DNA of 64,000 nt from an uncultured Thermoanaerobaculia bacterium (GCA_964423595.1 CAYRFI010000010.1:738-64737), one strand, 5' to 3'. Shown: positions 7,086-62,903, numbered from the stretch's first letter. Notes: generated by a model from the sequence alone, not told the origin. Program-made: numbers and translations.

Positions 7086-7142
7086 GACCTCGAGTCGTGT
7101 CGGACGCCGATGCCGCGGCTCGGCTGCGTTGAGCTGACACCC

Positions 7143-9508: not shown

Positions 9509-9542
9509 GACCGAAAGAGTGTAACGTTTCGCATCCTGGCTC

Positions 9543-11098: not shown

Positions 11099-11161
11099 CC
11101 CACATCATGGGTGCGACGCACTCGAAAAGGTGCCCGAAACCGAACGCGGGATTCGAGGCGC

Positions 11162-11704: not shown

Positions 11705-11717
11705 CGCAAACTGGATT

Positions 11718-11856: not shown

Positions 11857-11889
11857 GATCAGCCCTTGGGAGCGGACGCATCACGCAGT

Positions 11890-13578
11890 TCAAGGCCGGT
11901 AGCCCTGGCCACGAAGGACTTTTCCCGGCAGCTTGCCGGTCGCCTTGCCCTCATCAATCACGGGAACTCCGTTCACCAGCACGTATTGCATCCCTTGTGA
12001 AAGCTGGTTGGGTTTTTCGAAGGTCGCAAGATCGCGCACGGTTTCCGGGTCGAAGACCACGACATCAGCCCACATCCCGCCTTTCAGGACGCCCCGGTCG
12101 TTGAAACGCATGCGTTGAGCGGCCAGCGAGGTGAATTTGCGAATGGCGTCTTCCAGGGTCAATTTCTTTTCCTCGCGAACATATTTTCGGAGAATTCGCG
12201 GGAAGGTTCCGTACGCTCGCGGATGCGGCACGTCCTGGCCCAGGATTCCCTCCGGCGCCGTGCCTTCCGAATCGTTGTTGATGGAGACCCATGGCTGGAC
12301 CAGCGCTAGCGCCACGTCATCTTCCGACATTCCAAATACGGCCACCGAGGTGTCGGCGTCGTCCTGGATCAGGAGGTCGAAGATTGTGTCGATGGGATCT
12401 GTGCCCCACATCTCGGAGATATCGGCGATGGTCTGACCCTGCAGTGACATCAGATCCGGATTGTGCACGGCGCCTACCAGAATCGCTTCCGGTCCCTCGA
12501 TCTCGTCCCACTCATTGTCCCATTCGTCGCTGGGCGTCATCATGTCCTCCCGAATTCTCTCGCGCGTGGCCGGATCTTTCAGGCGATCGAGGAGTTGATC
12601 CGTTCCTCCGTCATGAGCCCAGGGCGGTATGAATGCGGAGAGCGGGTTGAACCATGCAGTGTAGGCATAGGTGTCGGCGCTGATGTCCACTCCGGCCTGC
12701 CGCGCGCGGTTGATGTGCGCGACGATCTCCGGCATGCGGCCGAAATTCTTCGTCCCCGCCACCTTCAGGTGCCAGATTTCCACCGGGATCTTTGCCTCCC
12801 GCCCGATCCTGATGGCCTCGTCCAGTGCGGGAATGATCGCATCTCCTTCACTGCGAACGTGTGTTGCGTAAATGCCCCCGTACTGCGCAGCCACGGAGGC
12901 CAGAGCGATCAGCTCTTCCGTATGTGCATACGGCGCCGGCGGATATTCCAGCGATGTCGAAACGCCAACCGCGCCGTCCCTCATACCATCTTCGACCAGC
13001 TTCTTCATGGCGTTCAGCTGGGAATCCGTAGGCTGGATATCCGCATCTCCCAGAACCACCCGGCGCACCTGAGTCGCCCCGACATAGGTTGCCAGATTGA
13101 TTCCCATGCCCTGTTTTTCCAGTCGTGCGAAGTATTCTCGGAGGGTCTTCCAGTCGAGATCGATGCCGTAGTGCTCGTAATACGAGCGGTCGGTTTTCAG
13201 GATGGCGTCATTCTGAGGCGCCGCGGAACCGCCTTCACCCGTGACCTCCGTCGTGATTCCCTGGAAGATTTTGGAGGGCAGCTGCGGGTTCACGAGTATC
13301 GTCATCTCCGATTGACCCAGCATGTCGATGAACCCCGGAGCAACCACAAGCCCATGTGCGTCGATCACCTCGCCGGCCTCGGCATCCGACAGGTTCCCGA
13401 TCGTCGCAATCTTGCCGCCTCGGATTCCGATGTCACCTGAATACCAGGGCGAGCCGGTCCCATCGATGATGTGGCCGTTGCGGATGACAACGTCGTACTC
13501 CGCGGCGACTGCGGATGGAAGTGTCCCCACCAACAGCCAGAGGATGATGAATGACATGGAATAATACCGTCGAGCCAT
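11890..13578 (-). CDS. amidohydrolase, N-acyl-D-amino-acid deacylase (D-aminoacylase) family, secreted
   Basis: ATG at 13578 follows GGAGGA. Signal peptide MARRYYSMSFIILWLLVGTLPSAVAA. Family hallmarks: YDVVIRNGHIIDGTG, PGFID, YATHVRSEG, VEIWHLK. Confidence 0.85.
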   Translation of the reverse strand: MARRYYSMSFIILWLLVGTLPSAVAAEYDVVIRNGHIIDGTGSPWYSGDIGIRGGKIATIGNLSDAEAGEVIDAHGLVVAPGFIDMLGQSEMTILVNPQLPSKIFQGITTEVTGEGGSAAPQNDAILKTDRSYYEHYGIDLDWKTLREYFARLEKQGMGINLATYVGATQVRRVVLGDADIQPTDSQLNAMKKLVEDGMRDGAVGVSTSLEYPPAPYAHTEELIALASVAAQYGGIYATHVRSEGDAIIPALDEAIRIGREAKIPVEIWHLKVAGTKNFGRMPEIVAHINRARQAGVDISADTYAYTAWFNPLSAFIPPWAHDGGTDQLLDRLKDPATRERIREDMMTPSDEWDNEWDEIEGPEAILVGAVHNPDLMSLQGQTIADISEMWGTDPIDTIFDLLIQDDADTSVAVFGMSEDDVALALVQPWVSINNDSEGTAPEGILGQDVPHPRAYGTFPRILRKYVREEKKLTLEDAIRKFTSLAAQRMRFNDRGVLKGGMWADVVVFDPETVRDLATFEKPNQLSQGMQYVLVNGVPVIDEGKATGKLPGKVLRGQGYRP

Positions 13579-13732
13579 GAGATTTCCTCCGTCGTGCAAT
13601 CGAGCTCCCTGGGGCCAGGTCTCATCATACGCTTTGAAGGGTTTCGTTGCGCGCCTCGGTGTCGCGCTTTCGCCGGCCGGAGGGGCGCGAAGAGAAGGAG
13701 CGCTGGGTCTTTGGTGGGTTTTTTGAATTCAA

Positions 13733-15301
13733 TCAACTCACCTCGTCTCCGAACTGACGCTGCAAGGTCCTGAGCTGCTCGACGAGGGTGTGGGTGATGT
13801 CTGAGTACTGGGCGTTGCCGTAGAGATTTGTCAGCTCGTGAGGGTCCTCCTCGAGGTCATAGAGCTCCCAGACATCCAGCTCGCCGTAGAAATGGATGAG
13901 CTTGTACCGGTCGGTGCGGATTCCGAAATGTGGTCGCACACGATGCCATCCGTGGGGATACTCGTAGTAGTGGTAGTACACACCCTGACGCCAGTCATCC
14001 GGTGTCTGACCCAACGTCAACGGTCGCAACGAACGTCCCTGCATCTCAGGCGGCACCGGCACTCCTGCGTAATCGAGAATGGTAGGGGCGGTGTCGAGGT
14101 TGACCACCAGGGCATCGGCAACCTTCCCTGCCGTGATCCCGTCGGGGTAACGGATGATGAGCGGCGTGCGCATCGACTCCTCGTACATGAATCGCTTGTC
14201 GTACCAGCCGTGCTCGCCCAGGAAAAACCCCTGGTCAGAGGTGTAGATGACGATGGTGGTGTCGCTCAGTCCGAGCTCGTCGAGTCGGTCCAGCAATCGG
14301 CCCAGATTGTCGTCGATCGAGGCGACACAACGAAGGTAGTCCTCGAGGTAGCGCTGGTACTTCCACTCGGTCAGCTCGTCACCCTCGGGCGGGTTGTCGG
14401 CAAAGGCCCGGTTGATCGGTTCGTACCGCCCATCCCAGGCAGCTTTCTCCTCCGCTGACATCCGCGCATACGCCTCCCTCCACGCAGGCTCGGGATCGAA
14501 CTCCGGGTCGCCGCCGGTTCCCGTCTCTCGCTCATAGGACCCTTCGTGCAGCTTCATGTCCAACGAGAGGTACATGTCCGCGATCCGCATGTCTGCCTCG
14601 CGTGCCGCCGGGCGTCCCTTGTAGTCGTCGCGAAATGTCGGCGGCAAGGGGAACTCCTTGTCGGCGAACAGATCGAGGTGTTTTGGACTGGGCATCCAGT
14701 TGCGATGCGGCGCCGAATGCTGGTAGAGCAGGCAAAACGGCTGTTCTTTATCCCTCGTCTCCAAGAACTCGAGCGCGAAGTCGGTGATCAGGTCGGTCAC
14801 ATACCCGGAATGCTCGACCTCGACGCCGTTTTCGGAAAACACCGGGCGGTAGTAATGACCCTGACCGATCAACAACCGCCAATGGTCGAAGCCCGTCGGG
14901 TCGGTCTTGAGATGCCACTTGCCCACCACAGCGGTCTCGTACCCCGCGTGCTGGAGCAGCTTGGGAAAGGTCATCTGTGAATCGTCAAACTCATCCCGAT
15001 TGTCCCGCAATCCGTTGCGATGGCTATACATGCCGGTCAGCAGCACGGCGCGCGAAGGGGCGCAGATCGCGTTCGTGACAAAGCTCGATCGGAAGCGAAT
15101 ACCCTCGTCGGCCAGGCGATCGATGTTCGGCGTTCGAATCAGCGTGCTGCCGTACGCGCTGATCGCTCGCTCCGCATGGTCGTCAGCCATGATGACGATG
15201 ATGTTGGGTGGCGCGGGAGTCGCCGATAGCCTAGCGACCAGGAAACCGCCAACAACAAGCACGGCAAGGGCTACGAGCAACCACAACGATTTTCTTCTCA
15301 T
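13733..15301 (-). CDS. sulfatase (formylglycine-dependent, type I)
   Basis: Signal/TM MRRKSLWLLVALAVLVVGGFLV. IVIMADDH and the C-x-P-x-R signature CAPSRAVLLTG. SDQGF and GKWH motifs. Confidence 0.9.
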   Translation of the reverse strand: MRRKSLWLLVALAVLVVGGFLVARLSATPAPPNIIVIMADDHAERAISAYGSTLIRTPNIDRLADEGIRFRSSFVTNAICAPSRAVLLTGMYSHRNGLRDNRDEFDDSQMTFPKLLQHAGYETAVVGKWHLKTDPTGFDHWRLLIGQGHYYRPVFSENGVEVEHSGYVTDLITDFALEFLETRDKEQPFCLLYQHSAPHRNWMPSPKHLDLFADKEFPLPPTFRDDYKGRPAAREADMRIADMYLSLDMKLHEGSYERETGTGGDPEFDPEPAWREAYARMSAEEKAAWDGRYEPINRAFADNPPEGDELTEWKYQRYLEDYLRCVASIDDNLGRLLDRLDELGLSDTTIVIYTSDQGFFLGEHGWYDKRFMYEESMRTPLIIRYPDGITAGKVADALVVNLDTAPTILDYAGVPVPPEMQGRSLRPLTLGQTPDDWRQGVYYHYYEYPHGWHRVRPHFGIRTDRYKLIHFYGELDVWELYDLEEDPHELTNLYGNAQYSDITHTLVEQLRTLQRQFGDEVS

Positions 15302-15506
15302 ACGTTGATCTCCCGCGGCGACCATATCAGTCGCGGGAATGCAATAGATGCCGAATCATGGGTTTTGAATACGAGACGCCATGCCCAACGGATGTGCGAT
15401 ATCTTCACGTGCCGGGTTTTGACGCCCAAAACGATACGCAGAGGTTGAAAACGCAGCGGCCCACGTGGGCGAGCACCGGTGAACGAAGAAGTGGTTGTCC
15501 ACCGAC

Positions 15507-17747
15507 ATGTCCCGGCATCCGGAGGTGCTCAGATTGACCCAGGAGGCCAGATGGACAGGAATCCAACTCGTGGACCGGGCGCCTGTACACCTCTATACTG
15601 TTGCGGTTGTGGATCCAGACAACAACCCCGTGCGGAAGGACGAGTTCTATCTCGGCGACTGGTTGATCCAGCCGAGTCTCGACCGGGTGACTCGGGGTCA
15701 CCGGACCCACACCGTTCCACCTCGTTTCATGGATCTTCTGGTTTGTCTCGCCGAGCAGCGGGGAGCCGTGGTCTCCAAGAGCCAGATTGTCGACAAGGTT
15801 TGGGCCGGCGATGTTGTGACCGACGGGGCCCTCACCCATGCGGTAGCGGTTCTTCGGCAGACGCTCGATGACGATGCCCGCGAACCGCGATACATCGAGA
15901 CGATTCCGAGGAGAGGATACCGCGTGATCGCCACCGTCCGGTCAGCCGACGAACCGCCCGAAGCGGACCCGGGGGAAGTGGCCGCGACGCACGGATGGCG
16001 CGTCCGCATCGCGCTGGTAGCGATCACGGCCGCTCTCGTGACATCGGCGGTCTGGTTCGTGTCAGTGAGAGACCGAGGAACTGCGCAACCGGTCGCAGAT
16101 GCGCCGATCCCGTCAATTATCGTTCTTCCCTTCAAAAACCTCGGTCCACCGGACCAAGAGTACTTCGCCGCCGGGATCACCGAAGAGCTGACCACCCGTC
16201 TGGCAGCGGTACGAGGCCTGACCGTCGTTTCGCAGACCAGTGCGTCGCGATACGCGAATACCGATTCAACCGTGGCCGAGATCGGAGAGGAGCTCGGGGT
16301 CGATTATCTCCTCGAGGGAAGCGTGCGGTGGGCATCGGGAGAGGATGCGGGGGAGAAAGTACGGATCACTCTCCAGCTCATCCGGGTGGAAAACGATCGA
16401 CATATTTGGGCAGAGGTCTACGATCGTGTTCTCGAAGACATCTTCACGCTGCAGTCCGAAATCGCCCAGCAGGTGGTCGAACGACTCAACGTTGAGCTGG
16501 TGGAAGCGGAGCAGCTCGCCCTCCAAGTCAGGCCCACCGCCAGTATCGAGGCGTACCAGGCCTATCTGCACGGCAGAGACTACGCCACCAGAAGAGATAC
16601 CGAACAGGACACGCTGCTCGCCGTAACGATGTTTCAGCGCGCCGTTGACCTCGATCCACAATTCGCTCTCGCCTACGCCGAGCTCGCTCAGGCGCACGCC
16701 CGCATCTACCACTTCGGTTTCGATCGCTCGGACCAGCGGTTGAGGGCTGCGCGGGAAGCTCTGGAAACCGCCCTCGAGCTCGATCCGATGTCGCCGGAGG
16801 TGCGTCTCGCCGCTGGGTACTACCACTACTGGGCCGAAATGAACTTCGAGGCAGCTTTGGAGGACTTTGCGGTTGCCGAAAAGGGACGGCCTTACGACGC
16901 CGAGGTGCTCGAAGGTGTGTCGTACATTCTTCGTCGGCAGGGGAAGCTCGAGGAGGCCCTCGCGAAGATCGAGCGAGCGTATGAGATTAGCCCTCGGGAC
17001 GCACTGATCGCGCTGGAGGTCGGGAATACGCTCCGTGGCCTCCGGCGGTACGACGAGGCCAACCGGCTTTTCGATGACGCGATCATCCTGTCCCCGGACC
17101 TGATGACAGCCTATCTGTGGAAAGCTGAGAATTATTGGCTGTGGAACGGTATGGTCAGCGATGCCGCGCAGACTTTACAAAACATGCCGAGGGTGCCGGT
17201 TTCGTATATGTTCGAGGGTCTGTACCTGCAGCAGATCTACGAGGAGGACTATGCCGGCGCATTCGCTCTGCTCTCCGAAACGGCCCTCGATGCGCACGTC
17301 ACCCAGGAGCGGTACTACCCGAAAGCTCTGCTCGAAGCAGAGGTGCATGCATTCGTGGGAGAGACCGATCAAGCTCGCGAATCATACGAGAAGGCCCGGG
17401 TCGTCCTCGAGAGGCTGGTTGCGGAACAGAAGGATGATGCGCGGTTCCACAGCTCTCTCGGCCTCGCCTATGCGGGGCTCGGTTTGAAGGCGGATGCAGT
17501 CCGGGAGGGACGATTCGCGACCGAGCTCTACCCCGTTTCGATGGACAGCTGGTCGGGAACCGATTTTCGTCGCGAGCTGGCGCGGATCTATGTCATGGTT
17601 GGCGAAAATAATCTGGCTCTCGACGAAATCGAGTTTCTGCTGGCCACTCCGAACCGATGGACATCGGTCGCACTGTTCCGTCTCGATCCGAGGTGGAATG
17701 CTCTCCGAGACAACCCGCGGTTCGAACGGCTCCTGAACGAGCGATAG
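15507..17747 (+). CDS. winged-helix (OmpR/CadC-type) DNA-binding protein with TM segment and C-terminal TPR domain
   Basis: wHTH ends with the typical YIETIPRRGYR. TM segment IALVAITAALVTSAVWFV. A TolB-N-like segment (IIVLPFKNLG) is followed by many TPR-like helices. Start uncertain (ATG 15507 vs TTG 15495). Confidence 0.85.
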   Translation: MSRHPEVLRLTQEARWTGIQLVDRAPVHLYTVAVVDPDNNPVRKDEFYLGDWLIQPSLDRVTRGHRTHTVPPRFMDLLVCLAEQRGAVVSKSQIVDKVWAGDVVTDGALTHAVAVLRQTLDDDAREPRYIETIPRRGYRVIATVRSADEPPEADPGEVAATHGWRVRIALVAITAALVTSAVWFVSVRDRGTAQPVADAPIPSIIVLPFKNLGPPDQEYFAAGITEELTTRLAAVRGLTVVSQTSASRYANTDSTVAEIGEELGVDYLLEGSVRWASGEDAGEKVRITLQLIRVENDRHIWAEVYDRVLEDIFTLQSEIAQQVVERLNVELVEAEQLALQVRPTASIEAYQAYLHGRDYATRRDTEQDTLLAVTMFQRAVDLDPQFALAYAELAQAHARIYHFGFDRSDQRLRAAREALETALELDPMSPEVRLAAGYYHYWAEMNFEAALEDFAVAEKGRPYDAEVLEGVSYILRRQGKLEEALAKIERAYEISPRDALIALEVGNTLRGLRRYDEANRLFDDAIILSPDLMTAYLWKAENYWLWNGMVSDAAQTLQNMPRVPVSYMFEGLYLQQIYEEDYAGAFALLSETALDAHVTQERYYPKALLEAEVHAFVGETDQARESYEKARVVLERLVAEQKDDARFHSSLGLAYAGLGLKADAVREGRFATELYPVSMDSWSGTDFRRELARIYVMVGENNLALDEIEFLLATPNRWTSVALFRLDPRWNALRDNPRFERLLNER

Positions 17748-17784
17748 CCGCCTGCGCGACGAAACCTGGTGAGACATGCGGGTG
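17746..17784 (+). repeat. foldback repeat, right-terminus fragment D
   Basis: GCGCGACGAAACCTGGTGAGACATGCGGGTGA matches the right arm/terminus of A and G (CTCGCGA[CT]GAAACCCGGTGAGATATGCGGGCTA). It starts at the stop codon of the upstream gene. Confidence 0.75.
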
Positions 17785-17993
17785 AGCACGCGGCAACCCT
17801 CGATTTTCAGCAGCTGTTCAAATCCATACGCGGTAACCACGGGGAAAAATCACACTCGTCACGGGCATATGTCATGACAGCGGTCTCAGAACGCCCGATA
17901 TTGAGAGATCAGAGCAGCAATGTTCCAGGAAACAAGAGCCGAACGAGCCGGTCATCCGCATCCGAACAGTTTCGGGGAATAGGGAGGGAGTGT

Positions 17994-20687
17994 ATGAAGA
18001 GATCGATTCTGATTGTCTGTTTGTTGTTGTTGACGTCGACGGCCATGGCCCAGACCCAGTACGGAACGATGTCCGGCCTGGTGGTCGATAGCACCGACGC
18101 TGCGCTCCCGGGTGTCACCGTGAGACTTGAAGGCCCCGACATGCAGGGCACCCGAGGAACTGTCACCGATGCGCGGGGCTTTTTTCGTTTTGTGCCGGTC
18201 CCACCTGGCAAAAACTACAAAGCGACATTTAATTTGTCAGGATTCAAGACGCTCGAAGTGTCCGGTCTCGTCGTCGAAATCGACACCGACACGCCCGTCA
18301 ATATCACGATGGAGATGGCGGAGTTTGCCGCCGCAATCGAGGTTGTCGCTGACAGCGTCGTGGTCGATACGACCAAGACCCTGGTCGACACGAATGTGAA
18401 CTTTGACCTCTTCGACACCTTGCCGAACAATCGCACCTACAGCTCGATTATCGCGGCATCCGCGGGAACCCGGCCCGGTAACAACGTATACATCAGCGGC
18501 GGATCTGATGACTCCAATGTCTACCTCGTTGATGGGGTCGACACCACCGACCCGATCTGGTTGACCTGGGGGACCCAGCTCAACATCGACATTATCGACG
18601 AGATTGCAGTTCAGCGAGCCGGCTACTCGGCCGAGTACGGGCGGTCGAGCGGCGGCGTCATCAACATGCTGACCAAATCGGGCGGCAACGATTTCTCCGT
18701 CCTGGCTCGTGTCGTCATCGCAAACAGTAATTGGTCATCCGACTGGGGAATCGACTCCGAGACGGGTAGGGAGAAGGCCGGCGCCGCCCGCATCGATGAG
18801 ATTCGCCCGAGCGTCGCGGTCGGCGGCCCCATTCTCAAAGACCGCCTGTGGTTTTTCGCTTCGTACGAAAACCGCGATATGACCCGCGACTACAGCTACA
18901 ACGCCTCCAACGAAGATCGCATCAACGGCGTCCTCAGCACCGGAGAGTTCTATTACAAGGGGCACTTCCTCTCCGCGAAGCTGACCGGGCAGATCAACGA
19001 CAGCAACAGGCTCATCGCTTTTTACAACGAAGACCCGATAGATTTCTCGCCGCTCTATGCCGGGAGCAGAGGCGCTCCGAATTGGCACCCGGATGCCGAG
19101 CGAAAGCAGTACCAGAAGTCCGAGGCCTTCTCACTGCAGTGGCAATCGACGTTGAGCGATACCTGGTTCCTCGAAGCGAAGTACCAGGATTACAACTTTC
19201 AGATTGACTTCCTGCCCGATGGTGTGCCGTGGACTGAGGGTATCCCATATGTCTACGATCAGGGTTCCGGCTATAACTACGGTTCGCCGCCGTGGGCCTG
19301 GTACACCAACCGACCACGTCAGGGTGTGAGCGCAGCGGCGACGCACTTCATCGATACTAACAGCGGTTCCCACGAGCTGAAGTTCGGATTTGACTGGACC
19401 GATATGAAACCTGAGGCAGGTGGGTATCGGAACACCAACGGATGGTATCGGGTCAACGGAGACGTGCCGATCCGGTACGATGTCTGGTACGACCAGACTG
19501 GTCCGAGACCATTCAGGCAGGACTACCGGGCGATTTACCTCCAGGACCAATGGCGCATCGGCAATGCCACCTTGAATGTCGGCCTCCGCGCCGAGGCGAC
19601 CGAGCTCTTCAACGCTGCCGACGATTCACTGATGAGCTTCGGCTTCGGCGACCAGATCGCCCCCCGGCTCGGCTTCGCCTATGACCTCAAGGGAGACTCG
19701 ATCCACGCCTCGCTCGGCCGTTTCTATGTCCTGCCGGGGAATTACGTCGCCCAGTACTTTGATGAGATCCCCACCGTCCAGGAGCGATATGTGTGGAACG
19801 ACACCTGCGCGACCAGCGGGGGGAATGTGTGGGATTACCCGGATTCATGTTGGGACTTTGCCTGGGACTGGCAGCCGGGCGTTTCGGCCACCATGGATCC
19901 CAACCTCGACCCGATCTACATGGACGAGTTCACCGCCGGCTACTCGACGAGAATCGGCAAACAGGTGTCTGCGGACGTCACCTTCGTCTGGCGTGAGCAG
20001 CCGAACACCATCGACTTCTACGATCCGAACGGGACATATTTGTACCTCATCACCAATGTTCCCGATGCCGCCGCAGACATCCCCGACGTCGGAGCCGAGC
20101 TCGCGAGCAAGCCGTACTGGGAGTACCAGGCCCTGCAGTTCGAGTTCCAGAAACGGTTCGGGCCGGACCGATTCCAGTTCATCGCCAACTACACCTACGT
20201 CATCAAATCGAACGCTTGGGACACCGGCGATCAGCGTAACAAGTTTGCCTACGTGTTCTGGGCGCCCGAAACCGTGGACCCGCAACGCTTCGGCAGGCAG
20301 GAGGGCACTCATTACGCCAAGTTCAACGGCTCGTACGCCTTCAACTGGCGCATGATCCTCGGGCTGTCCACCTATTGGAGATCCGGAAACCGCTACACGC
20401 CGGTGTCGTGGAAGTGGCCGGACGGTTCGTGGACCTGGTACACCACCGTGTTTACGGACGACCGCGGGTCCCTTGATGTCGGCAGCAACTGGGAGGCCGA
20501 TCTGTATCTCGAGCAGCCCCTCAGAATCGGGCCCGTAGACGTTTCCGTGTACGCGAACGTGTTCAATATATTCAACAATCAGCAGCCTCTTTGGCGCGAA
20601 AACAACATCGACTACGACACCTTTGGCGAGCCGTACGCCTGGCAGGCGCCACGACAGTGGCAGCTGGGCTTCAAGCTCACGTATTAA
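17994..20687 (+). CDS. TonB-dependent receptor-like outer-membrane protein with N-terminal carboxypeptidase-regulatory-like domain
   Basis: ATG at 17994 follows AGGGAGGGAG. Signal peptide MKRSILIVCLLLLTSTAMAQ. CarboxypepD_reg-like region GLVVDSTDAALPGVTV...DARGFFRF. Plug-like region YLVDGVD...GGVINMLTKSG. C-terminal aromatic residue. Confidence 0.85.
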   Translation: MKRSILIVCLLLLTSTAMAQTQYGTMSGLVVDSTDAALPGVTVRLEGPDMQGTRGTVTDARGFFRFVPVPPGKNYKATFNLSGFKTLEVSGLVVEIDTDTPVNITMEMAEFAAAIEVVADSVVVDTTKTLVDTNVNFDLFDTLPNNRTYSSIIAASAGTRPGNNVYISGGSDDSNVYLVDGVDTTDPIWLTWGTQLNIDIIDEIAVQRAGYSAEYGRSSGGVINMLTKSGGNDFSVLARVVIANSNWSSDWGIDSETGREKAGAARIDEIRPSVAVGGPILKDRLWFFASYENRDMTRDYSYNASNEDRINGVLSTGEFYYKGHFLSAKLTGQINDSNRLIAFYNEDPIDFSPLYAGSRGAPNWHPDAERKQYQKSEAFSLQWQSTLSDTWFLEAKYQDYNFQIDFLPDGVPWTEGIPYVYDQGSGYNYGSPPWAWYTNRPRQGVSAAATHFIDTNSGSHELKFGFDWTDMKPEAGGYRNTNGWYRVNGDVPIRYDVWYDQTGPRPFRQDYRAIYLQDQWRIGNATLNVGLRAEATELFNAADDSLMSFGFGDQIAPRLGFAYDLKGDSIHASLGRFYVLPGNYVAQYFDEIPTVQERYVWNDTCATSGGNVWDYPDSCWDFAWDWQPGVSATMDPNLDPIYMDEFTAGYSTRIGKQVSADVTFVWREQPNTIDFYDPNGTYLYLITNVPDAAADIPDVGAELASKPYWEYQALQFEFQKRFGPDRFQFIANYTYVIKSNAWDTGDQRNKFAYVFWAPETVDPQRFGRQEGTHYAKFNGSYAFNWRMILGLSTYWRSGNRYTPVSWKWPDGSWTWYTTVFTDDRGSLDVGSNWEADLYLEQPLRIGPVDVSVYANVFNIFNNQQPLWRENNIDYDTFGEPYAWQAPRQWQLGFKLTY

Positions 20688-27619: not shown

Positions 27620-29209
27620 ATGGTCCAGACGCGGAGAATGGCTGCGGGTCTGATCGTCATCGTGCTGAGCTTCGCTCAGGCCGGCCTGACTCAGTCCACT
27701 CAAGGGGTGGCGAGGCGGGAGGTCAAAAAGCCGTTTGACGTGGTCGAGGCTTCGATTGCGGACATCCACGAGGCCATGCGCGAGGGAAGGCTGACGTCGC
27801 GACAGCTGGTGCAGCTCTATATCGACCGAATCGAGGCCTACGACAAGCAGGGGCCCGCCCTCAATGCCATCATCGTGGTCAACCCCAATGCCCTCAGGCG
27901 CGCGCAGGAACTCGATGAGGTCTTTGCCGAGACCGGGATGGTCGGGCCGTTGCATGGCATTCCGGTCATCGTCAAGGACAACTACGACACGGCCGATCTG
28001 CCCACAAGCGGAGGTTCCCTCTCTCTTCGGGAATCGACACCGCCGGACGACGCTTTCCAGGTACGCAAACTCCGCGAGGCAGGCGCCATCGTGCTCGCCA
28101 AGGCCAACATGGCCGAGTTTGCGTTTTCCCCGTATGAAACTGTGGGTTCTGCGCTGCCCGGACACACCCGAAACCCGTATGCCCTCAACCGGGTCCCGGC
28201 CGGCTCGAGTGGTGGAACCGCGGCTGCGGTCGCGGCGAGCTTCGGCACCGTGGGCCTCGGCACCGATACCGGCAACTCGATTCGGGGCCCCTCCTCTCAC
28301 ACCGCGCTGGTCGGGATTCGATCGACTATGGGGCTGACGAGCCGCGACGGCATCATCCCGCTTTATCTCGACCATGACATTGGAGGACCGATCGCTCGCA
28401 CGGTGGCCGATGGAGTGGCCGTTTTTGACGTCATCGTTGGTTTTGACGAAACGGATCCAGTCACCGCCGACAGCGTCGACCACCGGGCGACAAGCTACCT
28501 TGGGTATCTCGACATCAACGCGCTGCGCGGGGCGCGGCTCGGCGTGATGCGTCAGTGGTCGAACCGTGAAGGTGCTGACGCCGAGGTCCTCGAGCGATTC
28601 GACGAAGCTCTGAAAGATCTCGAACGGGCCGGAGCCGTCCTTGTCGACCCGGCGACGATTCCCGAAATGGACGCCCTTCGAGAGGACGGCCTCTGGTGCC
28701 CGCGCTTCAAATGGGATCTCAACCACTACCTGAAGAGCCTCGGCCCAAATGCGCCCTATTCGAGTCTCGAAGAGATCCTTGCCTCGGGCCAGTTCCATCC
28801 GCATATCCGCCCACGAATGGAGTACGCGCAGGCGGTCGAAGATCCTCCGGGCAGCAACCCGGCCTGCCTGCGCTCGCTTGAAAACCGTGAGCTGCTGCGC
28901 CGGGCGGTTCAACACCAGCTTGATGCGAACCGCCTCGACGCCATGATCTTCCCCACCTGGAGCAATCCGCCACGTCTCATCGGCGATCTCAATACGCCCC
29001 ACGGTGACAACAGCCAGGACCTGTCTCCCGGTACTGGGTTCCCGGCGATAACGGTTCCGATGGGCTTCGTTCGGGGGAGCCTGCCGGTCGGTCTGCAGTT
29101 CTTCGGCGACGCCTGGTCCGAGCCGCGTCTCATCGCCCTCGCTTACGCCTACGAGCAGGCCATCCATCATCGCCGGCCGCCGATGACAACGCCACCGCTC
29201 GGCCACTGA
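27620..29209 (+). CDS. amidase (amidase-signature family), secreted
   Basis: ATG follows GGGAGGG. Signal peptide. AS-family Gly/Ser-rich signature GGSSGG-like (PAGSSGGTAAAVAA) and GTDTGNSIR. Confidence 0.9.
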   Translation: MVQTRRMAAGLIVIVLSFAQAGLTQSTQGVARREVKKPFDVVEASIADIHEAMREGRLTSRQLVQLYIDRIEAYDKQGPALNAIIVVNPNALRRAQELDEVFAETGMVGPLHGIPVIVKDNYDTADLPTSGGSLSLRESTPPDDAFQVRKLREAGAIVLAKANMAEFAFSPYETVGSALPGHTRNPYALNRVPAGSSGGTAAAVAASFGTVGLGTDTGNSIRGPSSHTALVGIRSTMGLTSRDGIIPLYLDHDIGGPIARTVADGVAVFDVIVGFDETDPVTADSVDHRATSYLGYLDINALRGARLGVMRQWSNREGADAEVLERFDEALKDLERAGAVLVDPATIPEMDALREDGLWCPRFKWDLNHYLKSLGPNAPYSSLEEILASGQFHPHIRPRMEYAQAVEDPPGSNPACLRSLENRELLRRAVQHQLDANRLDAMIFPTWSNPPRLIGDLNTPHGDNSQDLSPGTGFPAITVPMGFVRGSLPVGLQFFGDAWSEPRLIALAYAYEQAIHHRRPPMTTPPLGH

Positions 29210-29374
29210 CCCGCACACCTCACCAGGTTTCGTCGCGAGGGCGGTGAGGCACCGTGCCCGGTGGGGTTCCCGACCTGAGGGGACAGTTACGTGGAGCACT
29301 CCGAGGCGAGAAGACACCGCCGGGTGCGGTGCATCGGCGCCCGCGGCAAAAAAGCTGGTGAGATCTGCGGGCTA
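29207..29374 (-). repeat. foldback intergenic repeat, complete copy E (168 bp, inverted relative to A, tip hairpin absent)
   Basis: The reverse complement aligns end to end with copy A, apart from the missing ~18-nt tip. Termini are TGACCCGCACACCTCACC ... GGTGAGATCTGCGGGCTA. It fills the whole gap between two convergent genes. Confidence 0.9.
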
Positions 29375-30367
29375 GCACCGACACCAGCGTGCGGCGCGTT
29401 GGAAGAGCTCCGTCGGCCGTCGCGAGGAGGTCCAGGTGCCGGTCAGCGGTCCGTTGCCGGGAGGGCCGGGGAAGCCTTGAACTGCGAGTCGATGGGCGTC
29501 GAGCCACAGGCGCTGCGACTCGTCGTCGGGATCGTAGGGGCGCGTGCCGCCGCCGGAAAGGGGATCGCCGAGGATCGGCAGGCCCGCGTGGGCGAGCTGG
29601 ACGCGAATCTGATGCTTGCGGCCGGTGAACGGGCGAACTCGGACGAGGACAAGACCATCTTCGACCGCCATCACCTGGACCTCACAGCGCGAGTTGGCCG
29701 GCAGCCCCGGCCGTACCTCCTGACGCCAGTACTTGTTCGGGCTGCGGGCGATGTGATGGGCGAGAGTAAAGCGCGGCGGTGGCGGATCCCGCCGCAGCTC
29801 GCAGACCGCCGTGTAATCCTTCTCGACCATCGAACACGGCTGGAAGAGGCGCGCGAAGTGCGAGCGCGTTGCCGGGTCGAGGGACAGCAGCAACACCCCC
29901 GACGTCAACCGGTCGAGGCGGTGAAGCGGCGCGATACGGTCATTGCCGGTGGCTTCGAGGAGAAGGTGAAGGAGACAGTGGCGAACCCAGCGCCCGCCGG
30001 GTGTGACCGGGAGGTTGGGTGGCTTGTCCACCACCATCAGGTGCCGATCCGACCACACCACCCGGATGTCCGTGCGCACCGGCGGCTCCCGCTCGACTTC
30101 ACGCCGGTAGTGCACCTCGAGAAGCGGTTGGTAGGGCGTCCAGGCATCGATCACCGAGTCGGTCGTCCACACCTTGCCGGCCGCGAAGCGTTCCACCCAG
30201 GTCGCGCGTGGGATCCTCGGGAAACGGCGGAGAAAGAAATCGAAGATCGTCTGCACCTCCCGCGGTGGCCGCTCGGGCAGCTTGACGGTGGAGGCGCGGG
30301 TCGCCGGCGCCTCCGGGGTTCTCCCCACAAGGGCCTCGCTCGGATGGGGATCGCCGTCATCTGCCAT
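29372..30367 (-). CDS. RluA-family pseudouridine synthase
   Basis: Catalytic motif HRLDRLTSGVLLL. Start placed at ATG 30367 (MADDGDP...); the track's 30445 start runs into a repeat terminus. The stop TAG is the terminal CTA of repeat copy E. Confidence 0.85.
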   Translation of the reverse strand: MADDGDPHPSEALVGRTPEAPATRASTVKLPERPPREVQTIFDFFLRRFPRIPRATWVERFAAGKVWTTDSVIDAWTPYQPLLEVHYRREVEREPPVRTDIRVVWSDRHLMVVDKPPNLPVTPGGRWVRHCLLHLLLEATGNDRIAPLHRLDRLTSGVLLLSLDPATRSHFARLFQPCSMVEKDYTAVCELRRDPPPPRFTLAHHIARSPNKYWRQEVRPGLPANSRCEVQVMAVEDGLVLVRVRPFTGRKHQIRVQLAHAGLPILGDPLSGGGTRPYDPDDESQRLWLDAHRLAVQGFPGPPGNGPLTGTWTSSRRPTELFQRAARWCRC

Positions 30368-30426: not shown

Positions 30427-30453
30427 TCGACACCCGGTGAGACATGCGGGTTA
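30427..30453 (+). repeat. foldback repeat, solo right terminus F
   Basis: TCGACACCCGGTGAGACATGCGGGTTA. It lies 25 nt before the left terminus of copy G. Confidence 0.7.
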
Positions 30454-30478
30454 ATATGGCGGCGGCACGATGAAACCA

Positions 30479-31031
30479 AGCCCGCGTATCTCACCAACTT
30501 TCTGCTGCGGACGCCGATGCACCGCACCCAGCGGTGTTTTCTCGCGTCGGGGTGCTCGACGTACTTCAAGTACGCGCTCCGCGCCCTGCGAGGCTTGGCC
30601 GGGGCCCCCAGCGTCGTCCGTTGCGTGCGCCATGGTTCCGAATTCGAGGCGCCGCGACGACGGCGATGTCCTTCCATCGCCGAGGAGCGGCAACGAAGAA
30701 GACGGGCCATGCCGCCGACAACCCGGCGTTGGAAGCGAGAGGTGGCCGTTGCCGGCAATCGCCGGCGTACGGCTACTCGAGTCCGGGGTCGGGCCACAAG
30801 CCGCGGAGCGGCGCCGTAACCCTTCGGGCCGATGGGGGTCGTGGCCGATCTCTGCGTTGCTTGTCGTCGACGATGCACGGGCATCGACTTCCTCCTTGCG
30901 CCTTGATCTCGGCTCACGAGCCCCATCGGCGGACGGCACTGGGGAACCCGACCAAGCCTCTGGGTCGAAAACCTCACTGGGCACGGCACCTCGCCGCCCT
31001 CGCGACGAAACCCGGTGAGATATGCGGGCTA
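30479..31031 (+). repeat. foldback intergenic repeat, long form G (553 bp)
   Basis: Same termini (AGCCCGCGTATCTCACC ... GGTGAGATATGCGGGCTA) and the same outer arms as copy A. About 390 bp of additional internal sequence is itself an imperfect inverted repeat (for example GGCTTGGCCGGGGCCCCCAGCGTCGTCCG vs the reverse complement of CGGACGGCACTGGGGAACCCGACCAAGCC), centred near TTGCCGGCAA (~30750). Confidence 0.9.
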
Positions 31032-32128
31032 GCAGCGGCGTTGTCGGCACGATCGAGAATCTTCTCGAGAAGGCTCGAATCCCTGGATGCTCGCTCGCGG
31101 TGATCGGCCGAGACGGCCGGCTGTGGTCGCACGGCTTTGGAATCGCGGATGTCGTGAGCAAGCGTCCGACGAACGAGTCGACCGTATACCACCTGTTTTC
31201 AGGCACCAAGCTCTTTACGGCCACGGCGATCCTGCAGCTCGTCGAGGGTGGTCAGCTCGACCTCGGCACTGCGGTCACAGACTATCTGCCCCACCTGCCG
31301 CTGGCGCGCGATATCACCCTTCGCGCCCTGCTGAGCCACGCGTCGGGTCTGAGGGAAACGCTGGGAGGTTTTTTGGCCGTGTACTTCCCAGGTGAAGAAC
31401 CGCCGACCACCGAGCAGGCGCTGGCGGGCTACGATCTCCGATCGCGGGGGTCGGCGAGCGGAAAGGCCCAATACCGCAACGTCAATTACGCAATCCTCGG
31501 TGAGGTTGTCAGTCGGGTGTCCGGAATCCCGTATCGGACGTTCGTACGGCGGCGGATCCTCACGCCCTTGTCGAGCGACGCCGACTTCGACGTGTCGGAT
31601 TTCAAGCAGGATAATCTGGCAACTGGATACATGGCGCGCTGGGATCCGACGCGCGCTCTGCTTCGCTTCCTCGATCCGTTGACCTCGCGGCGCATCTACC
31701 GGGGGTGGACCAAGAACGGATTGGTGGCTCTGGAACACTACAACCTGGTGACCTCGGCGATCGGCGGTCTCGTTGGTTCCGTCTTCTCTTTTGCTCCCTT
31801 TGTCCAGTCCCAGCTGAGCGATGGGAGCCCCCTTCTCTCCCCGGAGACCATGCAGCGCATGCAGGCGTTGGTCGCCACGGGCAGGGCCGGTATCGAGTCA
31901 AGAGTCGGGGTCGGGCTCGGATGGAAGATTGGTCTGGTCGGCGATTGCCGATTCCTGAACCACGAGGGCGGTGGTGCGGGCTTCACGAGCGAGCTGCGGC
32001 TCTACCCGGACGAAGGCCTCGGAATGGTCGTGCTGATGAACAGGTCGTCGATGTCGGGCACGATGCGTGTCGCCCACAAGATTTGTGAAACGATCCGTGG
32101 AAACCGAGAGTCGTTTACTGGACGTTAG
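31022..32128 (+). CDS. serine hydrolase (beta-lactamase/PBP4*-like, class C fold)
   Basis: S-x-x-K motif FSGTKLF, Y-x-N (YRNVNY), and IPGCSLAVIGRDG near the N-terminus. The only in-frame ATG upstream of the conserved N-terminus lies inside the repeat terminus GGTGAGATATGCGGGCTA. Confidence 0.8.
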   Translation: MRASSGVVGTIENLLEKARIPGCSLAVIGRDGRLWSHGFGIADVVSKRPTNESTVYHLFSGTKLFTATAILQLVEGGQLDLGTAVTDYLPHLPLARDITLRALLSHASGLRETLGGFLAVYFPGEEPPTTEQALAGYDLRSRGSASGKAQYRNVNYAILGEVVSRVSGIPYRTFVRRRILTPLSSDADFDVSDFKQDNLATGYMARWDPTRALLRFLDPLTSRRIYRGWTKNGLVALEHYNLVTSAIGGLVGSVFSFAPFVQSQLSDGSPLLSPETMQRMQALVATGRAGIESRVGVGLGWKIGLVGDCRFLNHEGGGAGFTSELRLYPDEGLGMVVLMNRSSMSGTMRVAHKICETIRGNRESFTGR

Positions 32129-41720: not shown

Positions 41721-42168
41721 GCCTTTTCCCTTTCTCACCGCACGATAGGAGAAATCAGCACAGGGAATTCCCCGGCCGCCGGGCACTCGGGGTTGAAGTT
41801 TGGCGCGACCGCTGCGAAGGCAAGTGGTCTTGGCTCACCGCACGGCCTCGCTTTCATCCCCCTTTTGGGGGTGCCCGAACGAGCCGTGGAAGAAAACTGG
41901 TCGTCGCATCGAGCCCTGAACGGCGGCACCGACCGCCGCACGTCGAACGAGTGTTTCACGGCCGCTGTCCCTCTGTAAAGGTCGTTTACTACGGGTGATC
42001 TGCTCCCCGAATATTGGGAACTCTCATATCTCAAAACAGGCTGATTTTGACAAAGAACGCAAACGACTGAGGAAGGTTCGGCGGGGAGCCATGTTTCGCG
42101 TTGTTCCATGCATGCACCGTGCACGCGTGAGAGCCACGCGCCATACCGTGACGTCGTGAACGGGGGCA

Positions 42169-47060: not shown

Positions 47061-47220
47061 CTCGAGTTCTCCTTCGAGGCATATCTTAGCCCGCGCTTCT
47101 CACAAGGTGTCGATCGGGTACGCCGAATTGTCGCATTCCGCCGCCAGCGATGCCCGGCTATGGGAAACCAAGGATTGAGACATTCAAAACGAGTCGTACT
47201 CTGCGCTCTGGGACCGAGTG

Positions 47221-47682: not shown

Positions 47683-47901
47683 ACCTTACGCATATCTCTA
47701 TTCGTTACTTCCAGGATTCCACACCACCGATTCGTTTCCAGTGCGGAATATCACCGTGCGCCGACCGAGCTGGCTTTTTCCGGCCTTTTTGTTATCATAA
47801 CTTCAAAGATTGAGACCTAATATCTAAAAATGAGAAAAGGCGAGCAGCGTGAAATCTGCCGACCTCCTCTCGCCGCTGCCGTTCGGAACTGGGGGGTGAA
47901 C

Positions 47902-49563: not shown

Positions 49564-49670
49564 ACTACCCGGGGTCTGTCGGTCCAACAACGGCTGGACC
49601 GCACGCTGGCTGAGCGCACGAAGATGTAGGTGTCGAGAACGCCGGCGAGGTCAGAAGGACAGTAACGATC

Positions 49671-49728
49671 AAACACCGCTGGGTGCGGCGCATCGTCGGC
49701 CGCAGTAGAGACCTGATGAATAATGCAG
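49671..49728 (-). repeat. foldback repeat, degenerate left-arm fragment I
   Basis: AAACACCGCTGGGTGCGGCGCATCG matches the reverse complement of A 4277-4301 at 24 of 25 positions. Downstream, ...CTGATGAATAATGCAG is a decayed terminus (cf. TTGGTGAGATATGCGGG). Confidence 0.6.
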
Positions 49729-49758
49729 TTTCAACGGCGACGATGTTCGGCGAGTCGA

Positions 49759-60802: not shown

Positions 60803-62824
60803 ATGAAGAGAGTTCTGACCGTAGTCCTGTTTCTGCTCGTCGCCACCTCGTGCGGACAACAGGCACCACCCCTGACGAGCGGTATCGAGCTGGCCAACAT
60901 GGATACATCCGTTCGGCCGCAGGATGATTTCTTCAGATATGTCAACGGGACGTGGCTCGACACCACCGAGATCCCGGCCGACCGCACGAATACCGGGGTT
61001 TTCATGGATCTTCGCGACAAGGCGCGCGAGGACGTCAAGGCGATTATCGAAGATGTCGCTTCGAAGACCGATCTCGAGCCGGGCTCGGACGAGCAGAAGG
61101 TCGCCGACCTCTACAACTCCTTCATGGACACCGAGACACTGAATCAGCTCGGCATGTCATCGCTCGATGGGGAACTGGCGCGGATCGACGCGATCGCCGA
61201 CAAGGATGAGCTCTCCGCGTATTTCGCTCGCAGCGGTATCATCGGCGCGGGCGGGCCGTTCAACATCTACATCTGGGTCGATGCCAAGGACTCCACCCGT
61301 TATGTGACCTACATGTGGCAGTCCGGTCTGGGCCTGCCCGATCGCGACTACTACTTCAAGGACGATGAGCGTTCGGTCGAGCTGCGCGAGGCCTACGTTG
61401 ATCACATCGAAAAGATGTTCGGGCTCGCCGGGTTCGACGATCCGGCCGGGTCGGCTGCGCGAATGATGGCGCTCGAAACCGCGCTCGCGGAATTTCACTG
61501 GACCAAGGTCGAAAACCGGGACAGTGAGGCGAGATACAACAAATTTGCCACAGATGCGCTTGGCACGTTGGGCGAGGGGGTCAACTGGCCGCTTTTCCTG
61601 GAAGAGGCCGGGATCGATTCTGAAAAAGACATCATCATCAACCAGCCGAGCTTTATCGAGGGATTCAACCGGATCTTCGCCGCCACCTCGCTGGACGACT
61701 GGAAGACGTTCATGCGATGGAACCTGTTGAACAGATATGCCAGCTATCTGAATGCCGCCTTGGACGATCAGAACTTCGATTTCTACGGCCGGACGCTCGA
61801 GGGGCAGAAGGAACAGCGGCCGCGCTGGAAGCGGGCGGTCGACGTCGTCAACAACAGCCTCGGCGAGGTCATCGGCAAAGTGTATGTGAGCCGGTACTTC
61901 CCGCCCGAAGCAAAAACGAGGATGGTCGAGCTTGTCTCGAATCTCGGCGCGGCTTACGGCGAGGCGATCAACGAGCTCGATTGGATGAGCCCGGAAACAA
62001 AGGCGGCCGCTCGGGTGAAGCTCGAGAAGTTCACGCCCAAGATCGGCTATCCGGACCGGTGGGAGGACTACTCCGGGCTGGAGATCGTGAAAGGCGATCT
62101 GGTCGGCAACGTGAAGCGCGCCAACCGCTTCGGCTTCGAGCTCTTCCGCGGCAGGTTGGGCGGGCCGATCCAGAAATGGATTTGGGTGATGACCCCGCAG
62201 ACCGTGAACGCGGGTTATATTCCGACTCAGAACGAGGTCGTCTTCCCCGCTGCGATTCTGCAGCCGCCCTTCTTCAACATGGCCGCGGATGACGCGGTCA
62301 ACTACGGTGCCATCGGCGCGGTGATCGGCCACGAAATGGGCCACGGGTTCGATGATCAGGGCAGCAAGTATGACGGCGAGGGCAATCTCCATAACTGGTG
62401 GACCGACGAGGACCGCGAGAAATTCAAGGAGAGGACCCAGAAATTGGTCGACCAGTTCGCCAGGTTCGAGGTCTTCGACGACCTCAACGTCAACGGCGAG
62501 CTGACTCTGGGCGAGAACATCGGTGACCTTTCAGGTGTGACGATCGCCTACCGTGCGTACACAATGTCGCTCAACGGACGTGAGGCGCCGGTCCTTGACG
62601 GCATGACCGGCGACCAGCGCTTCTTCATGGGCTTCGGCCAGGTGTGGAAGTACAAGGCGACCGACGAGGCGATGCGGAACCGGGTGCTGACCGACCCCCA
62701 CTCGCCGCCGGAGTTCCGGGTCTGCGGAACCCTCGCCAACGTGCCCGAGTTCTATGCGGCGTTCGACGTGCGGGAAGGGGATGATATGTACGTCCCGCCC
62801 GAAGACCGCGTGAAGATCTGGTAG
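60803..62824 (+). CDS. pepO: M13-family zinc metallopeptidase (PepO/endothelin-converting-enzyme-like) lipoprotein
   Basis: ATG at 60803. Lipobox LLVATSCG. HEMGHGFD zinc motif, ENIGDLSG (ENxADxGG-type), and C-terminal ...VKIW. Confidence 0.95.
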   Translation: MKRVLTVVLFLLVATSCGQQAPPLTSGIELANMDTSVRPQDDFFRYVNGTWLDTTEIPADRTNTGVFMDLRDKAREDVKAIIEDVASKTDLEPGSDEQKVADLYNSFMDTETLNQLGMSSLDGELARIDAIADKDELSAYFARSGIIGAGGPFNIYIWVDAKDSTRYVTYMWQSGLGLPDRDYYFKDDERSVELREAYVDHIEKMFGLAGFDDPAGSAARMMALETALAEFHWTKVENRDSEARYNKFATDALGTLGEGVNWPLFLEEAGIDSEKDIIINQPSFIEGFNRIFAATSLDDWKTFMRWNLLNRYASYLNAALDDQNFDFYGRTLEGQKEQRPRWKRAVDVVNNSLGEVIGKVYVSRYFPPEAKTRMVELVSNLGAAYGEAINELDWMSPETKAAARVKLEKFTPKIGYPDRWEDYSGLEIVKGDLVGNVKRANRFGFELFRGRLGGPIQKWIWVMTPQTVNAGYIPTQNEVVFPAAILQPPFFNMAADDAVNYGAIGAVIGHEMGHGFDDQGSKYDGEGNLHNWWTDEDREKFKERTQKLVDQFARFEVFDDLNVNGELTLGENIGDLSGVTIAYRAYTMSLNGREAPVLDGMTGDQRFFMGFGQVWKYKATDEAMRNRVLTDPHSPPEFRVCGTLANVPEFYAAFDVREGDDMYVPPEDRVKIW

Positions 62825-62846: not shown

Positions 62847-62880
62847 GGGCCTCCACTGGATCGGTGGAGGCCCTTTCTTT
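62847..62880 (+). terminator. Rho-independent terminator downstream of the M13 peptidase gene
   Basis: Stem GGGCCTCCAC / GTGGAGGCCC, 7-nt loop (TGGATCG), followed by TTTCTTT. Confidence 0.8.
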
Positions 62881-62883
62881 GTC

Positions 62884-62903
62884 TGAGATATGCGGGTTAG
62901 GGA
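62884..62903 (+). repeat. foldback repeat, solo right terminus H
   Basis: TGAGATATGCGGGTTAGGG is identical to the reverse complement of the copy A left end plus its flank (CCCTAACCCGCATATCTCA). It sits 45 nt upstream of the glycosyltransferase ATG. Confidence 0.7.

Follow-up and report, generated by a model that had tools for sequence, protein, structure and literature searches.

A recurrent motif at gene boundaries in a Thermoanaerobaculia genome is most likely the end of an IS1380-type miniature transposable element and not a promoter

In a 64,000-nucleotide stretch of DNA from an uncultured Thermoanaerobaculia bacterium (GCA_964423595.1, CAYRFI010000010.1:738-64737; the whole stretch is called the window here), a short motif recurs close to gene starts and gene ends. 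An initial annotation, made from the sequence alone, had read its core, TGAGATATG, as resembling an extended -10 and had suggested an outward-facing promoter retained upstream of genes after decay of a larger repeat. We consider it highly likely that the motif is the end of a MITE (miniature inverted-repeat transposable element) of the insertion sequence (IS) family IS1380, and that its position at gene boundaries results from target choice and tolerated insertion, not from promoter function. The motif comprises the 15-bp terminal inverted repeat CCCGCATATCTCACC (with GGTGAGATATGCGGG at the other end) of a MITE of ~176 bp, followed by a 4-bp target-site duplication of the form YTAR.

The motif as the end of an IS1380-type element

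Recurrence of the motif in the window was far above expectation, with seven occurrences of TGAGATATG against 0.24 expected and eight of the 18-mer GGTGAGATATGCAGGCTA (at most three mismatches) against 0 expected. The 18-mer reported by the initial annotation was thus truly repeated, but was not a single unit, consisting instead of the inverted repeat plus target-site duplication. A 25-nt weight matrix trained exclusively on copies outside the window identified 12 genuine termini in the window above a threshold of 13 bits; the maximum over 30 simulated windows was 9.5 bits. The termini start at these positions:

First six: 4238 (-), 4397 (+), 9542 (-), 11723 (-), 17762 (+), 29206 (-)
Last six: 29351 (+), 30430 (+), 30477 (-), 31008 (+), 47086 (-), 62876 (+)

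A scan of one genome per species with the pattern GGTGAGATATGCRGGYTA returned at least 119 loci, and the matches listed from it, together with the window, contained 245 termini, among them 85 pairs spaced 49-376 bp apart. Except in close relatives, these listed pairs had only their ends in common. A second, lineage-enriched set came from metagenomes searched with the pattern CCYGCRTATCTCACCAACT, in which the flanking tetranucleotide was left free, and yielded 68 paired copies. Across both sets, the 85 and 68 paired copies were 49-548 bp long, with modes at 176 and ~165-182 bp, and contained no transposase gene. At two comparison loci, L080 (757-2429, 1673 bp) and L099 (640-2429, 1790 bp), the same ends surrounded a transposase gene, making these autonomous copies. 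Their open reading frames (ORFs) of 484 and 475 amino acids scored 410 and 391 bits against NF033539 (IS1380 family transposase; cut-off 180) and matched PF13701 at E = 1e-154. As the same ends enclose IS1380-family transposases in L080 and L099, the window repeats are MITEs of an IS1380-family element. They belong to a MITE family of IS1380 type that targets YTAR and is so far undescribed; CCCGCATATCTCACC was not found in the searched literature, where the only matches were to unrelated primers. Filled and empty sites in close relatives (L123 and orthologs of TerB, described below) indirectly suggest that the element is mobilised by the transposase. Folded as RNA, the 176-nt copy A formed a single long rod hairpin (-91.7 kcal/mol, z = -7.0), and no Rfam family matched at its gathering score anywhere in the window.

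Among the matches listed, the copies closest to those of the window were from metagenome-assembled genomes (MAGs) of Sulfomarinibacteraceae and Thermoanaerobaculia (85-89% identity), pointing to an acidobacterial source; copy A matched one from a Sulfomarinibacteraceae MAG at 89% identity. Paired elements with identical 15-bp ends were seen in Gammaproteobacteria (Thioalkalivibrio, Halieaceae, Azotimanducaceae and others), Thermoanaerobaculia, Sulfomarinibacteraceae, Gemmatimonadetes and a 'Rickettsiales' MAG. Horizontal spread of the parent IS is implied, as their internal sequences differ. Single matches, such as one inside a gene of the cyanobacterium Elainella (L061), may be due to chance. 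The family is common to Acidobacteriota, Gammaproteobacteria, Gemmatimonadota and others from marine and saline sediments. Complete MAG chromosomes with the family include OZ242179, OZ244830 and CP121313, and the organism of the window is present in JGI samples 3300031585 and 3300031277.

Target site and insertion preference

The 4-mers flanking paired copies were identical in 47 of 77 cases in the genome set and 24 of 68 in the metagenome set. Non-palindromic flanks formed direct pairs (for example TTAG/TTAG) 19 times, versus five pairs of the inverted type, and orthologs with an empty site at the serine hydrolase and TerB genes contained the tetranucleotide only once. Identical flanks, direct pairs and single-copy empty sites together establish that the element ends in the 15-bp CCCGCATATCTCACC and is bordered by a 4-bp YTAR duplication. 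The unbiased target logo was Y 88%, T 78%, A 90% and R 97%, and CTAG, which made up most targets, was preferred over TTAG, followed by TTAA and CTAA. Target-site duplications of IS1380 elements are 4-5 bp long in ISfinder, and a 4-bp YTAR duplication is in keeping with this.

Insertion sites were reconstructed by removing each paired element and one copy of its duplication, with explicit bookkeeping of offset and frame, giving 153 unique sites. Genes were called with a codon-bias model, whose calls in the window agreed with the public calls for the same DNA. Sites were distributed as follows, with occupancy given as the share of available YTAR:

Intergenic: 88 sites, 12% occupied
Exactly on a stop codon: 46 sites, 28% occupied
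First ~10 codons, in frame with the repeat's ATG: 15 sites, 37.5% occupied
First ~10 codons, out of frame: 3 sites, 9.7% occupied
Last ~10 codons, at the 3' end but not on the stop: 3 sites, 8.8% occupied
Elsewhere inside genes: 7 sites, 1.1% occupied

Stop-codon sites were occupied more often than intergenic sites (p = 1e-6), and occupancy of 5' sites exceeded that of internal sites ~31-fold (p = 2e-14). Among the 15 in-frame 5' sites, eight double as the stop codon of the upstream gene and were counted in both classes. The neighbour's stop codon lay inside the duplication at 35 of 80 end-facing termini, and 30% of paired elements were situated between convergent genes, compared with 13% expected by count and 10% by length. 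A gene hit on its stop codon keeps a stop, since TAG or TAA is part of the duplication. This is the case at both ends of copy E, whose left flank CTGA holds the TGA stop of an amidase gene (27620-29209) and whose right flank CTAG holds the TAG stop of rluA (29372 onwards). The initial annotation had offered preferential insertion next to gene starts as its alternative to a promoter. A preference does exist, but it is mainly for YTAR and stop codons, with first codons coming second.

These patterns are consistent with a mechanism in which an IS1380-family transposase would mobilise the MITEs in trans and insert them at YTAR. In GC-rich, tightly packed genomes, tolerated sites would lie mainly at gene boundaries, in three settings: TAG or TAA stop codons, where the stop would be regenerated; short intergenic spacers; and the first few codons of genes, where the outward ATG of the repeat, preceded by an in-frame TGA and a Shine-Dalgarno (SD)-like GGTGA, could take over as start. 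Truncated copies would then arise by ordinary deletions. Target choice, survival of harmless insertions and the shortness of intergenic regions would explain why the distance from termini to gene ends and starts is within tens of bases.

Copies in the window

The window contains two full copies, a long variant and a series of truncated or decayed remnants:

4238-4421, plus strand: full MITE copy A, 176 bp at 4242-4417, repeats CCCGCATATCTCACC/GGTGAGATATGCGGG (39.0 and 38.9 bits), flanked by CTAA at 4238-4241 and 4418-4421, between convergent genes
9542-9590, minus strand: truncated left end, ~34-46 nt kept, flank CTAG, 36.6 bits, with the ABC ATPase ATG (9508) 34 nt downstream
11723-11874, minus strand: truncated copy, left 157 nt of the long variant, flank CTGG, 31.3 bits, 19-20 nt upstream of the TerB ATG at 11704
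17747-17786, plus strand: truncated right end, ~40 nt, 26.6 bits, directly after the TAG stop of gene 15570-17747
29206-29375, minus strand: full diverged MITE copy E, 19.4 and 34.4 bits
30430-30454, plus strand: truncated right terminus (fragment F), flank TTAA, 30.2 bits, with the native ATG of the serine hydrolase gene (30470) 15 nt downstream
30477-31032, plus strand: long element variant, 548 bp plus target-site duplications, flanks CAAG and CTAG, in codon 3-4 of the serine hydrolase gene
47086-47110, minus strand: decayed truncated terminus, TGTGAGAAGCGCGGG plus CTAA, 14.8 bits, 26-27 nt upstream of the aminotransferase GTG at 47060
49666-49731, minus strand: internal element fragment with a degenerate end (copy I), between convergent genes
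62884-62900, plus strand: 13-nt terminus remnant plus TTAG, 13.8 bits (62876-62900), with the glycosyltransferase ATG (62945) 45 nt downstream

The motif strings and distances given by the initial annotation for TerB (20 nt), the ABC ATPase (34 nt), the aminotransferase (27 nt) and the glycosyltransferase (45 nt) were correct, as was the placement of the ATG at 31022 within the motif. Its counter-examples also agreed with our gene calls: copies A, E and I lie between convergent genes, and fragment F is oriented away from rluA.

Orientation of truncated copies

Each of the six truncated window termini faces a gene start, and four of them are in tandem intergenic regions, where orientation is informative; orientation of the terminus at 9542 is uninformative because the intergenic region is divergent. 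Elsewhere, a bias of solo termini towards starts was not replicated. In tandem regions of the other genomes, 10 truncated termini among the matches listed faced starts and nine faced ends, and in the metagenome set the counts were six and 10 in tandem regions and 11 and 17 over all region types. Pooling independent truncated termini (n = 67) gave 26 facing starts and 41 facing ends (16 and 19 in tandem intergenic regions), and all de-duplicated termini, truncated or not, gave 182 and 229. End-facing termini also lay nearer to their gene, at a median of 8.5 nt compared with 74 nt for start-facing ones. A lack of orientation bias among solo termini was the outcome that the initial annotation had specified as refuting its reading. 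We treat the 6/6 of the window as a post hoc fluctuation in the discovery sample, while allowing for a lineage-specific effect.

The origin of truncated copies could be reconstructed at TerB, where four orthologs retain the empty site. In the window, the terminus occupies a CTGR target directly beside the conserved leader GTTAGAATYCARTTTRCR-ATG. Both the element's distal part and ~105 nt of native spacer have gone, with the junction at a CTGG microhomology immediately after the upstream stop codon. The TerB copy therefore arose by ordinary deletion, and the other truncated copies presumably did so too. One-ended transposition was considered as a source, but the inner boundaries of the copies at 17747 and 62884 had no matching 4-mers and deletion was favoured. 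The 18-nt TerB leader (11705-11722) is conserved down to 80%-identical orthologs (L244-L247) and has no SD-like motif. A TAGAAT 10 nt before the TerB ATG suggests a very short or leaderless mRNA.

Deletion could in principle also have produced the orientation bias of the window. An element end that adjoins a ribosome-binding site (RBS) or start codon cannot be lost, whereas the distal spacer can, and at TerB it was indeed the distal element and its ~105 nt of spacer that were removed while the proximal terminus stayed beside the conserved leader. The same constraint predicts equal retention beside stop codons, so that alone it leaves the 6/6 unexplained, and it draws on a single reconstructed locus; we consider it a rather unlikely explanation of the six start-facing termini.

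Several points weigh against attributing the gene-boundary position to target choice and tolerated insertion. The 6/6 of the window deviates from its own positional null of 0.586 (p = 0.04) and from the other data sets (Fisher p = 0.005). Gene calls at the comparison loci came from a codon-bias caller validated on the window only, and noisy starts would affect the 5' classes. Single exact matches in some taxa may be chance, with ~70 random matches expected in 596 Gb by a rough estimate. Lastly, by analogy, the promoter idea has a real precedent within the IS1380 family, in ISEcp1 and ISPme1.

Promoter activity

If the terminus were an outward promoter, with TGAGATATG as its extended -10 selected upstream of genes after decay of the element, the start-facing orientation of the six truncated window termini and the TG one base upstream of GATATG would be readily understood. 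Neither register of the core fits. Read as GATATG, it has A(-11) but a G at -7; read as TGAGAT, it has T(-7) but a G at -11, and an extended -10 (TGnTATAAT) with both A(-11) and T(-7) was absent in every core register; the rule of the promoter scan likewise rejects both readings. Positions upstream of the inverted repeat are not conserved and hence provide no -35. Positions 4000-18500, which include five termini, were scanned for a sigma-70-like consensus; none of the termini had a promoter-like site, nor did any of these five contain a complete outward -35/-10 pair of the ISEcp1 type inside the element end. The terminus at 17747 lies 208 nt upstream of a TonB-dependent receptor gene, and a separate promoter-like site (17874-17902) lies in between. 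In start-facing termini that have decayed, the AT core is gone (GAAGCG at 47086, GACATG at 17762). Copies between convergent genes carry the same sequence at both ends, the orientation bias is missing among the 67 independent truncated termini, and termini lie nearer to gene ends than to starts. Since the motif is identical at both element ends, and in autonomous copies and MITEs across phyla, its conservation points to recognition by the transposase and not to a promoter. On the sequence evidence the promoter reading is not supported, nothing indicating a promoter in the terminus, and we regard it as very improbable.

The precedent within the family deserves closer comparison. ISEcp1 and ISPme1 have strong outward promoters, and a remnant of ISEcp1 has been kept as a promoter: ~200 bp of it remain upstream of blaOXA-232 and drive its expression (PMC9330008). 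Both share their transposase family (NF033539) with the element described here, a family in which misrecognised ends also give rise to one-ended units. The ISEcp1 promoter, however, is a complete TTGAAA-18-TACAAT in subterminal DNA outside the inverted repeat, whereas the remnants found here keep 13-46 nt of inverted repeat, lack a -35/-10 pair and show no orientation bias. To our knowledge, the inverted repeat of ISEcp1 is unrelated in sequence to that of the present element. In the autonomous copy L099 (2390-2412), an outward-facing TACAAT, identical to the ISEcp1 -10 hexamer, lies ~10 nt inside the right inverted repeat, with no convincing -35.

A hybrid promoter might instead form at the junction, with TTGGTG at the inner edge of the terminus as -35 and a -10 in the flanking DNA. 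At TerB, TTGGTG and TAGAAT are separated by exactly 17 nt, and the TAGAAT falls within the leader that orthologs conserve, a block whose native upstream half was displaced by the insertion. Over 146 start-facing termini, TANNNT at a spacing of 16-18 nt occurred three times, as often as at two control offsets (3 and 3), and TTG was present at that position in only ~38% of termini, which leaves the hybrid arrangement scarcely credible.

The promoter idea is the sole part of the initial annotation that would amount to a regulatory discovery, and it is not supported; genome annotations should mask the motif as the end of a mobile element and not treat it as a regulatory signal.

Possible replacement of start codons by the repeat

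Read outward, the repeat runs GG TGA GAT ATG CGG G followed by YTAR, with a stop codon three bases before the ATG. The initial annotation had noted that the terminus contains the start codon of the serine hydrolase gene, and here comparison with an ortholog showed that the native start had been replaced, making the putative signal a translational and not a transcriptional one. The relevant features are:

31022-32128, plus strand: serine hydrolase gene (PF00144), whose present predicted start is the ATG in the right inverted repeat
30470-30480, plus strand: native 5' end of the serine hydrolase gene, displaced and still present at the left flank of the long element (ATG AAA C plus CAAG)

An 86%-identical ortholog with an empty site (L123) reads ...GGCACG ATG AAT CCA GGC AGC GGC..., and in the window GGCACG ATG AAA C-CAAG still borders the 548-bp element on its left. 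From this empty site and the displaced 5' end in the window, it follows that the element landed in codon 3-4 and that the ATG of the repeat replaced the native start, changing the predicted N-terminus from MKPSSGVV, the reconstructed native form, to MRASSGVV. Alignment with the ortholog upstream of the gene stops ~18 nt before the native ATG. The public gene call likewise starts at the 31022 ATG, the N-termini of homologs have the same length, and the ratio of nonsynonymous to synonymous substitution rates (dN/dS) against the ortholog is 0.29. A 182-codon ORF (30470-31018) extends from the native start through the whole 548-bp element to the TGA in the right repeat, 3 nt before the new ATG; the Joint Genome Institute (JGI) calls it as a gene, it has no Pfam match, and by a rough estimate such a length is unlikely by chance at 63% GC. 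This arrangement could allow coupling of termination and reinitiation.

At the other reconstructed loci, native starts with good RBSs lay 4-22 nt upstream of the target, and downstream ORFs were intact with no other start nearby. At one of them the N-terminus of a KdsB-like protein, MRKTDFRVVAVIPARW, is now MRAKVVAVIPARW, and several loci were at overlaps between operon genes. Within the first ~10 codons, occupied sites were in frame with the repeat's ATG in 15 cases and out of frame in three, versus 25 and 28 for unoccupied sites (Fisher p = 0.012). Three orthologous loci (L150, L154 and L231) share an insertion site, with a dN/dS of 0.23 for the downstream gene. That site (ATGG/TTAG...CTAA/AGGCAAG) is occupied by elements of 185 bp (L150, 936-1120), 170 bp (L154, 3457-3626) and 461 bp (L231, 728-1188). 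L150 and L154 carry different internal subfamilies, and independent insertions at a hotspot are therefore possible. The long L231 form has the same extra internal module as the window element at 30477-31032, which suggests that variants of different length originate at the site itself or through exchange among copies.

Complementing target choice and tolerated insertion, the outward end of the repeat may thus act as a portable cassette for restarting translation, composed of TGA, an SD-like GGUGA, 3 nt and AUG. Insertion in the first codons or between overlapping operon genes would then leave the downstream gene translatable with an N-terminus of MRA(S/K). Judged from sequence comparison, we put this at a little under an even chance. 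Besides the serine hydrolase, with its proven empty site and same-length N-terminus, it would explain the in-frame excess, the ~31-fold occupancy of 5' over internal sites, the intact downstream ORFs that lack an alternative start and the conserved gene behind the shared insertion. A duplex of GGUGA with UCACC in the 16S tail was predicted at -7.6 kcal/mol versus -0.3 for a control. There is also a precedent in Acinetobacter, where the outward inverted repeat of MITEAba12, derived from ISAba12, supplies neighbouring genes with their start codon and first four residues, MQQS (PMC6382973). Residues supplied by the present repeat would be MRA(S/K) or MQA(K). MITEAba12 differs in its parent ISAba12, its predicted and transcript-supported outward sigma-70 promoters and its weak secondary structure, the present element having a long rod fold and a strict YTAR target. 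Arguing the other way, codon usage and the phase that gene overlaps usually have would already produce some of the in-frame excess, and with stop-codon sites excluded the comparison falls to 7/29 versus 3/31, which is not significant. In the full element, moreover, the stem of ~-90 kcal/mol pairs the repeat and would hide both SD and AUG, and the native starts were called by our own gene caller.

Were the ATG of the repeat truly used, it would be a recurrent route by which genes survive 5' insertions. Annotated starts at this ATG need care, because some are artefacts of the TGA-GAT-ATG frame and others are real replacements. A 325-codon ORF (4411-5388, plus strand) starts at the ATG in the right inverted repeat of copy A; it was rejected as a gene, being the antisense shadow of a real cytochrome c gene (4462-5370, minus strand), and illustrates that the TGA-GAT-ATG frame can seed false gene starts. 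The public call of rluA (357 amino acids, PF00849) begins at an ATG that arose within truncated repeat F on its inward strand, at 30443-30445 on the minus strand, where CCCGCATATC became CCCGCATGTC; our codon-bias caller favoured a start at 30367.

Comparison with known elements

IS1380 transposases have eukaryotic relatives in the piggyBac transposons, for which they have served as outgroup (PMC10813416). The likeness to piggyBac extends to the target, a 4-bp duplication at a palindromic TA-centred tetranucleotide, which is TTAA there and YTAR here; piggyBac is eukaryotic, whereas the present element is prokaryotic and its target degenerate.

Correia elements (CREE) of Neisseria are MITEs of ~100-150 bp that have inverted repeats, a TA duplication and a position close to gene boundaries; they are co-transcribed and fold into hairpins. 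Their ends carry functional promoter elements and sites for integration host factor (IHF) and RNase III, and they are restricted to one genus. We know of no parent IS for them, in contrast to the present element, whose parent is identified and whose distribution spans phyla.

The ends of the present element may even have been shaped for compatibility with gene boundaries, YTAR always recreating a TAG or TAA stop for a gene that reads into the element and the outward stop, SD-like sequence and ATG restarting translation of a gene that reads out of it, but this is a tentative idea that we find doubtful. If true, the MITE could settle on stops, operon-gene overlaps and first codons, including those of essential-looking genes, with little harm, and such low-harm settling could explain its spread over several phyla of sediment bacteria. 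With its strict YTAR target, the family also offers a clean natural experiment for asking at which sites insertions are tolerated by bacteria.

Chance matches and minor observations

Exact partial matches to the terminus are expected by chance at 0.48 per window for lengths of at least 10 nt (P(at least one) = 0.37) and at 2.8 for at least 9 nt. Two sites listed by the initial annotation are of this kind:

47689-47698, minus strand: 10-nt exact match GAGATATGCG, below 3 bits on the matrix, flanks without further similarity
42025-42033, minus strand: 9-nt match TGAGATATG ~300 nt upstream of norZ, at chance level as an element remnant

Given these expected counts, neither is separable from chance, and both drop out as termini. 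At the first, attributed to a membrane protein gene starting at 47682, the true start is likely the second ATG at 47676, with AAGG 7 nt upstream. At norZ, the TTGTCA-N17-GATATG arrangement exists in the sequence, although derivation from the element is not demonstrable.

Directly adjoining the 13-nt remnant at 62884 is a GC-rich hairpin with a T-run (62848-62883; GGGCCTCCAC...GGTGGAGGCCC TTTCTTTGTC), which looks like the terminator of gene 60803-62824. Many contigs start or stop 20-120 nt inside the element (L001-L119, L120-L122), and in the organism of the window breaks fall at 4285 and 9546; in these sediment MAGs, assemblies are frequently broken by the repeat. In L012, from a long-read MAG, termini at 2676, 4943 and 7210 are all on the minus strand and exactly 2267 bp apart, each with the neighbour's stop codon in its duplication, a pattern resembling the tandem triplication of a 2.27-kb unit.

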